DNA of 64,000 nucleotides from a virus. Its lineage: Duplodnaviria > Caudoviricetes. Positions within the stretch are counted from its first letter, which is position 1. Every line of letters begins with the position of its first letter. A model generated the notes under the pieces. It made no database searches and was not told the DNA's origin. It worked only from the letters and a program-made list of their open reading frames with translations. The position numbers and the translations under genes were made by a program. The stretch lies in IMG/VR virus record IMGVR_UViG_3300037247_001786, positions 384,001 to 448,000 of that record; one strand, written 5' to 3'. This document shows, piece by piece, positions 1 to 44,335 of the stretch.

Positions 1-56
1 CAGAGTGTAAATTTTTGATTATTATAGTAGTGGTTAATAATTAAAGGGAAGAGAAC

Positions 57-638
57 ATGGACCTATTTATACAAAATATGGATAAGATAGAAAAGATAGC
101 TGAAAAGATGGTAAATTATTGGCATGGGAAATTTGAAGTCGAAGAATTGATAGATACTGCTTATATTAAGTATCGTACAGCTATCGAGAATAATCCCTCA
201 TTAGTGGATAGTGTTTTTTCTAATCTAACAACTTTTTTATGGCGTGTAAAAAATGATATGAAGGATTATATAAAAAAACAAACTGGGATAAGAACAAAAG
301 AAAAGAAAAAAATGCTTGCTAACACTATTACTCATTCTTTTCAACGTCCAGATGACGATAACGGCAATCACGGTTGCATATCTTTCTTTGAACCTCAAAG
401 TATTGACAAAGGTCAGGAAAGTGTGGACAATTGTGAACTTCTTAATGAAATTTTTAAAAAAGTAGAATTAACTGATAGAGAGTGGAAAGTTATACAGGGC
501 TATTTTTGGGAAGGAAAAACAACTAAAGAAGTGGGTATAGAACTTGGGTCTGCCGATAAAAATGCTTCTGGAACAACTTGTAATATAAAAAATAAGATAG
601 TAAAAAAACTTCAAAAACAAGCGTTATTATTGGTGTAA
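57..638 (+). CDS. RNA polymerase sigma-70 family factor (group 3/ECF-like)
   Basis: Region-2-like EELIDTAYIKY...FLWRVKNDMKDYIKK; region-4 HTH LTDREWKVIQGYFWEGKTTKEVGIELG. Confidence 0.75.
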   Translation: MDLFIQNMDKIEKIAEKMVNYWHGKFEVEELIDTAYIKYRTAIENNPSLVDSVFSNLTTFLWRVKNDMKDYIKKQTGIRTKEKKKMLANTITHSFQRPDDDNGNHGCISFFEPQSIDKGQESVDNCELLNEIFKKVELTDREWKVIQGYFWEGKTTKEVGIELGSADKNASGTTCNIKNKIVKKLQKQALLLV

Positions 639-640
639 AT

Positions 641-1204
641 ATGGATTTCTTTTTTGAACATTTAAAAGGCATACAACAGATGGCTCGTAAGATTTGCAGG
701 TCTTATCATGGCAAGTACGAGGTAGATGAATTGATAAATGTAGCCTGGATGGATTATCAAGTAATGATAGAAAAGTATCCTTTTTGGACAAGGAGTTACC
801 GTTATCCCGAATTAATTCTTTATAAAAGAGTCAGATATGATATGTTAAATTATATCAGATATGATCTAAAATTAAAGAAAAAAAAGATATTAGAGAAAAA
901 TGGTTCTCACGTTCCACTGTTTATTAGTTATAATGCAGAGGATAAAGATGGGGAAAAGTTATCTTCTTTCACAGGTTCGTATTCTGATAAAGGTTTTGAC
1001 AAAGTCGATAATCTTGAGTTATTAGAATATCTTAGAACTCGCATGGGATTAACTGATAGAGAGTGGAAGATACTTAAATATTATTTTTATAATGGGTACA
1101 CAGACAGATTAATTGCCGAAAAAATAAATATATCAAAATCAAGGGTATCGCAGTTAAGAAATCAAGCTCTCAAAAAATGTAAGGAACACTTAATAGGAGT
1201 ATAA
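641..1204 (+). CDS. RNA polymerase sigma-70 family factor (SigF/FliA-like region 4), paralogue of 57-638
   Basis: DELINVAWMDY...YKRVRYDMLNYIR; LTDREWKILKYYFYNGYTDRLIAEKINISKSRVSQLRNQALKK is a classic sigma-4 HTH. Confidence 0.85.
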   Translation: MDFFFEHLKGIQQMARKICRSYHGKYEVDELINVAWMDYQVMIEKYPFWTRSYRYPELILYKRVRYDMLNYIRYDLKLKKKKILEKNGSHVPLFISYNAEDKDGEKLSSFTGSYSDKGFDKVDNLELLEYLRTRMGLTDREWKILKYYFYNGYTDRLIAEKINISKSRVSQLRNQALKKCKEHLIGV

Positions 1205-1417
1205 GAAATGCAGATGAAGAAAGTAACATTAACTGAAGAATATGTTCAGGGTATTTTGCATCCTTACATACATTCGGATATGGGGGATGGGGACATCTTT
1301 GCTTTTACGAGAAAGATTCAAAATGATGCAATACGTCAGGAGACTAAATTGGAAAATCTGACAGAAATATATTTTATGTTAATAGAATATAGAGATAGTT
1401 TAAAGAAATAAATATAA

Positions 1418-1489
1418 GCTCTCATCGTCTAGTGGTCAGGATTGCTGGTTCTCAGCCAGTTGACGAGGGTTCGATCCCCTCTGAGAGTA
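1418..1489 (+). tRNA. tRNA-Glu (CTC)
   Basis: Acceptor GCTCTCA/TGAGAGT, anticodon arm GCTGG-ttCTCag-CCAGT, T arm GAGGG-TTCGATC-CCCTC; no encoded CCA. Confidence 0.93.
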
Positions 1490-41417: not shown

Positions 41418-42503
41418 ATGGACAAGGCAGCCAACTATCACAGCAAAGCAAAAGATTTCGTAAGGACCATCGCAACCGAAAAAATAGGGAATCCAGCCAA
41501 ATTTTCTATCGTTTTCGCATCCGTCGATGCCCTATCCACAAAACAGAACTTCAAAACGGGAAACTTCATAAACAAGAGCAAGTTAATCCCGGTTGAGCAA
41601 GAACCGTTAATTCGCCCATTAGTAGATAAAGTAATGGGACAATTAACAAAGAATACTGTACCTGCTTTAGCTTGTTCAGCCCATTCAATTCCTTTGGAAA
41701 AACATCTTGATATTAAAAAGGGCGAAAAACTCGACTATACCTTTTATGATATTTGCGGTAACGAAACTGTTAGAATCGCAAGATGGTTCTATCTCTATCA
41801 AGAATATCTTGAAAATGGGATGCGTCTGCCGATGACAATTCAGGTCGGAAGTAAAAGAGGTTTTGGATATAGTTATGATGCTGTCAATAATGCGACAAAT
41901 GGTAACTTTAACTCTTTTGTCCACAATCTTTTAAGAAAACAAGGTACCGAAATAACTCTTTTGAGTAGCTCAATTTCACCTGCAGCTTGGGAAAGCCTAT
42001 ATGCTCAAATCTATCTGATTTATTGCTCAATGCCAAGCAAGGAAATCGAGTTTAAGAGTATCCATATCTATAACAACGCCGATATTGTAGATAGGGAAGA
42101 GGGGCAAATTGGGAAACTTGCTGAGGATATGGCTATGATAGATATGGTTATTCACGACAGAGAAGAGCTTGATACCGTTATCTTGAGCAAGTTAAAAAAG
42201 ATAGTCAACTGCTACAATGAACTAATCAGCGATAATACTGAGATAATAGAGCTGAAACATCGGGTTCGTAAAAGCAAGGCTAAAAAAATGAGGGAAAAGA
42301 AGCCAATGAAAATCTACAATCCACCTCGCTTTGTAAATGCCCACGAAATCGCCCGACATTTGGGGATATATGGCAACTATAAATCAATGGATGACGTTCC
42401 ACAAGGAAAGCAGTCATGGATTAAGATTCACGCAAAACAAAACAGTCTCGACCCGATCGTTTGCTTCAATAAGATAAAACAAAGATTGTCGAGACGGAAA
42501 TAA
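41418..42503 (+). CDS. Hypothetical protein (cassette gene)
   Basis: AAGGAG SD + ATG 41418 after element 41341. Confidence 0.65.
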   Translation: MDKAANYHSKAKDFVRTIATEKIGNPAKFSIVFASVDALSTKQNFKTGNFINKSKLIPVEQEPLIRPLVDKVMGQLTKNTVPALACSAHSIPLEKHLDIKKGEKLDYTFYDICGNETVRIARWFYLYQEYLENGMRLPMTIQVGSKRGFGYSYDAVNNATNGNFNSFVHNLLRKQGTEITLLSSSISPAAWESLYAQIYLIYCSMPSKEIEFKSIHIYNNADIVDREEGQIGKLAEDMAMIDMVIHDREELDTVILSKLKKIVNCYNELISDNTEIIELKHRVRKSKAKKMREKKPMKIYNPPRFVNAHEIARHLGIYGNYKSMDDVPQGKQSWIKIHAKQNSLDPIVCFNKIKQRLSRRK

Positions 42504-43031
42504 CACAATAAAAAAGAGAGAGAGCCTCCAGAAATGGGGGCTTTTTTTTCGCGAAAAATTGAGTGCCAGAGTGCCAATTTTTCTATCTTATTAAGGTATA
42601 AACAACAATAACTTTTGGAGATAAAAAAATGAAAATCAAAACAAAAGAAGTCGGCAAAATAATGGCAATTGAAGACAGAGATTGTACTATTATTAAATGG
42701 ACAAAAGATGTCGTCTTGGACGTTATAAAATTCGATAAAACAGGAGAAGACCACGACCCCGCCGATGATAAAGTATTCAAACAAGGGGAACACACTCTTG
42801 TTAAAAACCTTGAGGAATTTGATAAGGAATCAGTCGAACTAGACTTTATGGATGGGACAAGTTGCCTTTATATATCTAAAGATTCTTTCAGCGTCCCGCT
42901 AATGATTCGATTAAATCAAGAGGAAACCGATATTACCCTCAATAATGTACCTGAATGGGTATCGTAATCCGCCAGAGTGCCCTTTTTTCTATCTTATAGT
43001 ATTATAAAGAATAACTTTTGGAGATAAAAAA

Positions 43032-43496
43032 ATGAGTTACGACCAAATAAAAGAAATCAATTATAATACGTCAAACAATATCCTACAAATCCCGAATCTA
43101 AAGTTCAGTCAAGAAACAAAGAAACTCTACCATAAATATAGAGAACTAAAAACTATAACAGAAAAACATCTCCAGAATCTCGCCAATAGCATCTTCAAGG
43201 ATTTAGGACTTAAAACAGTACCAATAACTTTTAATGGAGTACGTCCACATCAGAGTAACGGAAAACGAATTGTTAAGGAAACCCACGGAGTACATCAAAG
43301 AGGACTCGATGGATCCAAAATAACTGTTTATCAATTTACTGCCGCAAGAAAAAAACATATAGCGGCTAAAACAGCTATATCAACTCTTCTTCATGAGATA
43401 AACCATAATATAGATTATAATATCTTGAATCTGAAGTCAATACATACAAGAGGCTTCTACTCCAGATTGAAACATCTAACTGCACAAATGGGATAA
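43032..43496 (+). CDS. SprT-like HExxH zinc-binding protein
   Basis: STLLHEINH...HTRGFY. Confidence 0.6.
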   Translation: MSYDQIKEINYNTSNNILQIPNLKFSQETKKLYHKYRELKTITEKHLQNLANSIFKDLGLKTVPITFNGVRPHQSNGKRIVKETHGVHQRGLDGSKITVYQFTAARKKHIAAKTAISTLLHEINHNIDYNILNLKSIHTRGFYSRLKHLTAQMG

Positions 43497-43576
43497 AGTA
43501 TGTCTTTTGCCAGAGTGTCAGTTTTTCTACTTTATAGTATTGTAAAGAAAACAATAACTTATTTTTGGAGAAAAAA

Positions 43577-44335
43577 ATGGAAACGAAAACAAAAACAAAC
43601 GTCATAGCGATAACAAAAATCACGACCGACAATATCGCTGAAATGCTCTTGAACCGTCACGGAGCCACTTTCGTAAGGCTTGACAGCAGAACCGAACCGA
43701 ATCTGAAAAAGACCAACAACCCCTTTTATGACAAGGCAACCAAGACCATGAATGTCGTAAAAGACTCGTCAACCAATGCGATGATTGGGGTAAACTATAC
43801 CAACTTGGTCAACAATGCTCGAAACCGAGAAGCCATTAACGAAGTAAAAGAAGCTTTAATGTCGGCTTTGGGAATGACCGAAGAAGATGCAAAAGCATAC
43901 CTCGAAAGTCTTTTAACTTCTGCCTCGGATATGGTAAATATCAATGCCGAAGCTTTCGAGCCAAAACCTCGTAAATGGGGAACGCATATGATAGACAAAA
44001 AAGGTCTTGTTTCAAAGACTATGGTAGAACATACCAAAGCCGATGGAGAATATAACCAATACATGCAAATCATGGTTATCTCCTCTACAACTCCAGTTTA
44101 TCGCTATGCCGATACGCTCGAAGAAGTATCAAAAGCAGACCTCGAAACTATTAAATCTCTTATCCCCCCGAAATACAGCAATGCGGCACATCAAGGTCTT
44201 AAAAGGGAAGTAATAATAAGGGACTACAAAGTCCAGAATATCAAACAGCTACGGCTAAACAAGACAGAGTATGTCGTCGAAGCCGAAACCGTAGTTGTCG
44301 ATGCCCAAAGTCATGTATCTTCCCCTGCTGTATAG
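43577..44335 (+). CDS. Hypothetical phage-type protein, last cassette of the array
   Basis: GATFVRL...KKTNNP...NY.NLVN...KWG.H...RDYK; follows element 43507. Confidence 0.65.
   Translation: METKTKTNVIAITKITTDNIAEMLLNRHGATFVRLDSRTEPNLKKTNNPFYDKATKTMNVVKDSSTNAMIGVNYTNLVNNARNREAINEVKEALMSALGMTEEDAKAYLESLLTSASDMVNINAEAFEPKPRKWGTHMIDKKGLVSKTMVEHTKADGEYNQYMQIMVISSTTPVYRYADTLEEVSKADLETIKSLIPPKYSNAAHQGLKREVIIRDYKVQNIKQLRLNKTEYVVEAETVVVDAQSHVSSPAV

Follow-up and report, generated by a model that had tools for sequence, protein, structure and literature searches.

The 64-kb window analyzed here comprises bases 384001-448000 of a 460,978-bp phage genome from IMG/VR (IMGVR_UViG_3300037247_001786; 34% G+C; terminal repeats), and its first 44,335 bases are filled by a one-way array of genes headed, time after time, by a single element built around the 8-mer GCCAGAGT. 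Judged from its sequence, this element is a bipartite promoter, consisting of the box GCCAGAGT, an A/T-tract, TTAT and TRT (R, purine), followed by a conserved 5' leader. We think it probable that the element defines a phage-private transcription class in which the host core RNA polymerase would act under a phage specificity factor, likely the small sigma factor encoded at the start of the window (sigma1). We refer to these promoters as class 1 and to a second, sigma-70-like type as class 2. Coordinates are those of the window unless given as genome positions.

The box occurs 63 times in the window, on the + strand only, from 1918 to 43509 (shuffled sequences had 0.87 on average and never more than 4). 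A 64th copy starts 2 nt 5' of the window (genome 383999) and is cut by the window edge; its 3' part, at 1..35 (+), is the promoter of the sigma operon. The first-pass annotation had put the number at about 64, which is exact when the truncated copy is included, and its description of + strand copies every ~150-2,000 bp that are absent past 43.6 kb agrees with a measured copy-to-copy spacing of 167-2075 nt (median 562). Counted from the G of GCCAGAGT, the copies start at 1918, 2908, 4798, 6759, 7643, 8200, 9223, 9806, 11881, 12696, 13282, 14079, 14732, 15200, 15788, 16929, 17983, 18866, 19642, 20230, 20943, 21854, 22021, 22996, 23333, 24131, 24611, 25022, 26220, 27043, 27383, 27790, 28134, 28649, 29099, 29701, 30094, 30811, 31326, 31987, 32501, 32827, 33334, 33564, 34109, 34980, 35657, 35971, 36332, 36547, 36988, 37537, 38015, 38287, 38853, 39145, 39536, 40018, 40428, 41343, 42565, 42971 and 43509. 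Each copy in the window part of the array (1..44335, +) is followed by one to four co-directional genes or by a unit without an open reading frame (ORF), and the array ends with the last copy and its 252-aa gene (43509..44335, +). The entire array (genome 367117-428335, +) starts ~16.9 kb 5' of the window.

Confinement to the array holds for the whole genome, as the motif scan proposed in the first-pass annotation was meant to establish: 77 of the 78 + strand copies of GCCAGAGT lie within genome 367117-427516 and the other is at 339992, whereas the - strand has one good copy, at 42795. Of the 77, the copy at genome 375832 is a chance occurrence of the 8-mer that lacks the remaining motif. A whole-genome scan with a 42-position weight matrix (threshold 14 bits; median of true copies 43 bits) found no one-mismatch versions of the 8-mer. 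The two isolated class 1 copies off the array, at genome 42770-42795 (-) and 339992, have genes behind them as well; one precedes a 486-aa HATPase-like gene adjoining an NAD synthase gene, and the other precedes a 95-aa ORF.

The aligned copies give the logo a-T-T-GCCAGAGT-G, 2 free bases, an A5-7 or T5-6 tract, ~6 free bases, y-TTAT-AG-n-A-n-T-R-T and AA. TTAT lies at +23 from the box G in 61 of the 63 window copies and TRT at +32 in 60 (both in 58), so the fixed distances described earlier are real, and an A5 or T5 tract is present within the spacer in 59. A hairpin inside the spacer was considered and rejected, since mutual information revealed only the alternative between A-tract and T-tract and no pairing. 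TT stands just 5' of the box in 53/63 copies; the ten exceptions are the copy at 29701 and nine at 38015-42971, in keeping with the earlier remark that TT decays in later copies while the 8-mer is invariant. Similarity among copies extends 23 nt or less leftward and up to 63 nt rightward to the start codon, and the repeated unit is therefore a promoter together with its 5' leader. For example, the promoter-leader module at 38853..38922 (+) matches the copy at 40018 without gaps over 63 nt past the box, and the gene behind it is unrelated.

Copies and genes are co-directional throughout, and a gene lies just downstream of every copy save four that head ORF-free units. The leader, GGAG and ATG that the first-pass annotation had described as usual follow 48 of the 63 window copies, with the ATG at +48..+77 (median +65). 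A further 11 window copies have an ATG exactly at +33, which opens an ORF of 42-228 codons, and there are 13 such units genome-wide when ORFs of 40 or more codons are counted. In the longest of these (25022..25741, +), the TRT box itself supplies the start codon of a 228-codon ORF. Upstream ORFs likewise stop at fixed places, at -3 (17 cases) or -2 (7 cases), or inside the element at TGA in +7..9 (7 cases) or at the TAG of TTATAG in +26..28 (5 cases). The genes themselves are small and share little with one another, nearly all of the array's 136 ORFs being mutually unrelated. This fits the earlier idea of a modular gene library headed by the element, and origin of the array by tandem gene duplication was rejected given only ~5 paralog pairs among the 136 ORFs.

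The R of TRT, at +33 from the box G, is the most likely RNA start, judging from the geometry of the element. A start at this base puts TTGCCA at -35..-30, followed by a 17-nt spacer, tYTTAT at -12..-7, 6 nt and then R, and the T-R-T pattern of the logo conserves a pyrimidine at -1 and a purine at +1. The 20-nt spacer that the first-pass annotation had treated as an anomaly depends on the register chosen and becomes 17 nt in this one. Two conserved blocks ~17 nt apart that are co-directional with, and just 5' of, the genes are what bipartite promoters of the sigma-70 family display. The 13 ORFs noted above begin at this same base, 7 nt past TTAT, and +33 start codons also appear in 8 of the 10 related loci described below. 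In this register, the box GCCAGAGT(G) would span ~-33..-25, the A/T-tract ~-21..-17 and TTAT -10..-7, followed by AG.A.T.

Related arrays were fetched with pattern scans and with homologs of the DUF932 and PARP-like proteins, giving ten metagenomic loci, or nine independent ones given that L151 and L156 are overlapping parts of a single contig. In IMG/VR, scanning with a 14-base pattern returned single chance matches only; a stricter pattern found one relative in IMG/VR and five in metagenomes of the Joint Genome Institute (JGI). Nothing similar to the element or the array was found among phage GenBank records. Nearly all of the genome is present in one marine-sediment sequencing run, and diverged pieces of it occur in four runs from another marine study. 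All ten relative loci are one-directional arrays with the same tract, (T/C)TAT, TRT and leaders. Their boxes differ by lineage: TCCAGAGT/TCCAGAGG in L149, TCCAGAGG in L151/L156, ACCAGCAT in L150, CTCAGACGG in L158, and GCCAGACT/GCCAGCGT/GCCAGAGT, i.e., GCCAG[AC][GC]T, in L127, L130 and L157. CAG is common to every box found, although the later scans required CAG, TA at +24/+25 and TRT and give no independent proof of invariance there.

Class 2 promoters provide an internal reference for these changes. Their motif, cTTG(a/c)AAGTGAtt-N10-(TG)n-TAtAAT, has sigma-70 geometry and a canonical -10, and its 57 copies (7 for a control pattern) lie on both strands all over the genome, preceding, among others, genes for ribonucleotide reductase, a clamp-like protein and two sigma-like proteins (sigma-47k and sigma-261k). 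Class 2 is unchanged across all related lineages examined. The two classes meet at 4767..4835 (+), where a class 2 promoter (cTTGCAAGTGA..TATAAT, 4767-4797) abuts a class 1 element (4798-4832) and the gene at 4863 follows. At the orthologous site in relatives, class 2 is kept and the abutting box, GCCAGAGT here, is GCCAGCGT in L157, TCCAGAGG in L156 and CTCAGACGG in L158. Thus, the class 1 motif is private and varies with lineage while host-type promoters are constant, as expected of a promoter class read by a phage sigma. Since the box switches at one orthologous site with class 2 constant, the host primary sigma offers no explanation, and a phage-encoded, co-evolving specificity factor, to which the lineage-specific boxes point, would offer one. 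As a separate observation, class 2 carries an invariant AAGTGA at ~-30..-25, beyond the normal -35 and conserved in all related phages, and it may be that class 2 too needs an extra factor.

The same comparison bears on whether class 1 elements are ordinary strong host sigma-70/sigma-A early promoters that are uniform through common descent, a reading we consider exceedingly improbable. TTGCCA does resemble TTGACA, and the early promoters of T4 and SPO1 are likewise unusually uniform (PMC2839356), but the TT preceding the box decays whereas the box never does, and the relatives have other boxes and lack TTG in their class 1 elements while the true sigma-70-like class stays constant. The elements do not display TTGACA-N17-TATAAT with A-11, T-7 and TTG conserved across related phages, and a consensus scan of the array yielded 90 sigma-70-type sites against 77.5 +/- 8.8 in shuffles, which is no excess. 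The first-pass annotation was therefore right to doubt a plain host sigma-70 promoter, in that the box varies by phage lineage and the sigma-70-like class 2 does not.

Two other readers have to be considered. One is the host primary-sigma holoenzyme after sigma appropriation, or a class II activator bound at the box around -30, in the manner of MotA and AsiA. T4 middle promoters have a MotA box near -30, where MotA and AsiA act, and with a start at +33 the class 1 box would be centred near -30, 13 nt from the -10 position and thus MotA-box-like; AGTG at ~-28..-25 is moreover common to class 1 and class 2. This alternative is nonetheless unlikely, as MotA and AsiA domains were not found in the genome, the -10 region is not TAnnnT in the +33 register, and the four phage sigma genes offer a simpler reader. 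The other is an unrecognised phage RNA polymerase, virion-packed or not, which we regard as very improbable. Many large phage proteins are without a family match, and divergent two-barrel polymerases escape Pfam models, but nothing in the genome matched T7-type, Rpb1 or Rpb2 models even at E = 1. The promoters of known phage multisubunit and single-subunit polymerases are single short or contiguous blocks, whereas two motif blocks with a 17-nt spacer between them are what sigma-dependent promoters typically show. The earlier proposal of a phage sigma, virion RNA polymerase or activator as the reader is thus sustained by box switching as regards a phage specificity factor and finds no counterpart in polymerase domains.

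Four sigma-like genes are present in the genome. Two lie far from the array, namely sigma-47k (genome 47262-48107; 281 aa, regions 2-4, class 2-driven) and sigma-261k (genome 261290-262039; a weak sigma match with a class 2 promoter in front). The other two are in tandem directly behind the class 1 copy at the start of the window. Sigma1 (57..638, +; 193 aa, sigma-70 family) matches Pfam Sigma70_r4 and has an unusual insertion in the region-4 helix-turn-helix, and sigma2 (641..1204, +; 187 aa) is a paralog that shares ~30% identity with sigma1 and whose region 4 is canonical. An ortholog of sigma1 that is 44% identical and differs in the recognition-helix region heads the L156 array, where the PARP and DUF932 proteins encoded on the same contig are 67-69% identical. 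Because sigma1 stands behind a class 1 copy and its ortholog diverges faster than PARP and DUF932, this fast-evolving small sigma is the best candidate for the reader of the element. An exhaustive search for small-sigma homologs returned ~25 divergent proteins, no sigma2 ortholog was found adjoining the L156 sigma, and neither peptide-pattern nor word searches found relatives of sigma2.

How might such a system operate? We propose that the host core RNA polymerase reads the element with a phage-encoded specificity factor, most likely a sigma1-type sigma from the array, perhaps acting with the paralogous sigma2. The first sigma would come from a small number of constant class 2 promoters further upstream (class 2 sites lie within the upstream part of the array at genome 371.7, 371.9 and 376.4 kb), and the class 1 promoter of the sigma operon would then amplify it. 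In phage 7-11, too, a sigma gene is fed by host-type and phage-specific promoters (PMC4331800). Some 77 promoters would fire one way, mostly without terminators between them, and would serve to express a 60-kb stretch of small, mutually unrelated accessory genes along with the four tRNAs and several small RNAs. In 20 kb, 14 terminator-like sites were counted where 9.5 would be expected, and a hairpin plus T-run precedes ~15 of the 63 window copies. Past the array, a class 2 (AAGTGA-type) promoter at 44690..44773 (+) takes over, with the gene start at genome 428774.

Several points weigh against this proposal. In the +33 register, position -11 is C or T rather than the canonical A-11, and an alternative register with TATAGT as the -10 and a start near +36 fits A-11/T-12 better; a start near +36 would leave the 13 start codons at +33 outside the RNA. 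An AGG-type Shine-Dalgarno sequence lies in the promoter spacer of 7 of the 13 +33 genes compared with 2 of the 63 other copies (p = 2e-5). These seven genes are therefore also equipped for translation from read-through transcripts, which makes the leaderless case for the start site weaker, while the five or six +33 genes without a spacer Shine-Dalgarno would need leaderless initiation. No RNA runs were found among the sequencing runs that hold the phage. As for the reader, box and sigma are both known in two lineages only, sigma-47k, sigma-261k or an unrecognised activator could fill the role in place of sigma1, and box differences could in principle track different hosts instead of a phage factor.

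Besides its promoter role, the module may serve as a homologous joint for the gain, loss and swap of cassettes, similar to the promoter early stem-loop (PeSL) cassettes of T4-type phages. The two roles are compatible, and we consider the second plausible, if on balance rather doubtful. Several comparisons favor it. Hardly any of the array proteins are related to one another, while their modules have as much as 63 nt in common, down to the ATG, and upstream ORFs terminate either flush with the element or within it. Blastn homology between the genome and L127 or L130 starts within 1-2 nt of the box, and gene order in L130 differs. Similarly, L133 has the upstream gene and element in common with the genome and a different downstream gene, and L126 has two element-headed genes inserted within a core region. 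In contigs of the second marine study, 20 of 46 joints fall inside the element or leader (16% expected), although contig joints may reflect multi-mapping of a repeated motif.

Other evidence on the same question points the opposite way. The order of ~12 backbone genes is kept in five relatives (L149, L150, L151, L157 and L158), and indels occur at element-free junctions as well, such as the 58-aa gene at 25738 that is absent from L150. Nearly all intergenic DNA is element, and block boundaries must therefore coincide with it. Distant relatives retain the leader types (87% over 77 nt vs ~68% in the adjoining gene), so that recent copying alone would not account for the similarity, which points to function. 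The source sample proved clonal: among its contigs there were no element-to-element joints, circle junctions or rearranged forms. No integrase was found in the genome. For the first-pass claim that the element is a joint for gain and loss, the outcome is mixed. Some homology blocks do begin at the element, and the recommended comparison of cassettes and breakpoints among relatives gave suggestive cases in L127, L130 and L133, against which stand the syntenic backbone, the element-free indels and a source sample in which the excised circles and element joints it had anticipated were not seen. From these comparisons, the array is best described as a hyperplastic region in which variable genes are set among a conserved backbone of genes.

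The array holds, in addition to the two tandem small sigmas, PARP-like, radical-SAM, DUF932 and AAA_33 kinase-like genes, HNH endonucleases and four tRNAs. The tRNA genes (Glu-CTC, Arg-TCT, Arg-CCT and Arg-ACG; 1418..1870, +) belong to the same transcription unit as the sigma genes. Two backbone genes are the PARP-like gene at 9854..11164 (+), with WGR, PARP_reg and PARP domains in Pfam, and the DUF932 gene, whose cassette (20943..21812, +, element included) supplied the query used to fetch relatives. The PARP-like protein has 2299 metagenomic homologs at E <= 1e-20, on contigs up to 393 kb, with 52-78% identity among the 120 best of them; the gene encodes a complete PARP-like enzyme and marks this clade of huge phages. 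Three paralogous HNH homing-endonuclease-like genes lie at genome 381766-382353, 374537-374944 and 62291-62989; the first two are in the upstream part of the array (L146:17766-18353 and L146:10537-10944). The arrays of relatives include a TnpB/IS605 gene (L149:14724-15869) and a TnsA-like gene (L151:14821-15702).

The four ORF-free units, each an element copy without an ORF behind it, lie at 22021-22381, 30094..30368, 33334-33563 and 36332-36546 (all +). All are GC-richer and end in hairpin-plus-T-run terminators; the unit at 30094..30368, a structured RNA unit, has 50 nt at 92% identity to L149, and that at 22021-22381 contains two tandem copies of a ~75-nt hairpin unit. Rfam matched the four tRNAs and nothing else, and the ORF-free units are likely phage small RNAs without an Rfam family. 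Immediately after several terminator hairpins, and ahead of the next element, lies a palindrome, TTTTCGCGAAAA (1880-1915, 30790-30810, 33543-33563, 36527-36546, 38830-38852 and 42540-42564). CGCGAAAA and its complement TTTTCGCG together occur 44 times on both strands of the genome, and the palindrome may be bound by a protein or belong to a bidirectional terminator. At the record ends (genome 1-285 and 460868-460978), the terminal repeat is made of 57-nt tandem units, and these ends may mark where the assembly was closed and not genuine termini.

PeSL cassettes of T4-type phages (Arbiol et al. 2010, PMC2839356; Comeau et al. 2014, PMC4122927) are close in layout to the arrangement described here. 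Both comprise dozens of ~70-nt repeated modules before ORFans in hyperplastic regions, with variable genes between modules, and both run in the order of upstream stop codon, AT-rich stretch, promoter, Shine-Dalgarno sequence and ATG (PMC2839356). PeSL promoters, however, follow the host sigma-70 consensus, whereas the element is phage-private and lineage-specific. PeSLs also carry a stem-loop terminator, whereas our module is without a stem-loop (no pairing covariation) and a terminator precedes only some copies. Exchange and mini-circles have been demonstrated experimentally for PeSLs, whereas for the element exchange is a possibility suggested by sequence comparison. Like an integron, the array is one-way, with unrelated small genes split by a repeated element, but no tyrosine integrase was found here, there is no attC-type inverted repeat, and no common Pc serves the units, each of which has a promoter of its own.

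Phage-sigma promoter systems include those of SPO1 (gp28, gp33/34), whose cascade is known (PMC13401047), and of phiEco32 and 7-11 with their extracytoplasmic function (ECF)-like sigmas (PMC4331800). In these, as proposed here, a small phage sigma redirects the host core polymerase to a private bipartite motif, and the sigma gene of phage 7-11 stands under host-type and phage-type promoters, as we suggest for sigma1. Such classes have ~10-30 copies, mostly before middle or late genes, whereas there are 77 here, one per 780 nt, before accessory genes. The conserved leader, start codons at the start site and box switching among relatives go beyond those systems. Dense one-way small genes with about one strong promoter per 1-2 genes also characterize the host-takeover module of SPO1, which, as Stewart and colleagues reportedly described in 1998, is 11.5 kb long, sits within the terminal redundancy and is driven by host sigma-A promoters; the present array differs in its 60 kb and its phage-private promoter class.

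Phage-sigma promoters and PeSL-like cassettes were thus already known, and what is new is a set of ten related loci with the same architecture but lineage-specific boxes. We would venture, as a tentative and rather speculative extension, that a widespread clade of uncultivated huge marine phages forms an orthogonal series of sigmas and promoters, in which a small, fast-evolving sigma and its ~80 promoters switch box together and the module doubles as an exchange joint that wires incoming genes to the resident sigma. The array defines roughly 130 genes as one regulon and provides a testable transcription programme for a huge-phage clade known only from metagenomes. The natural box variants, together with the candidate sigmas, might find use as orthogonal parts for gene expression. 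Should the module double as an exchange joint, this would explain how a large accessory library is kept expressed during its turnover.

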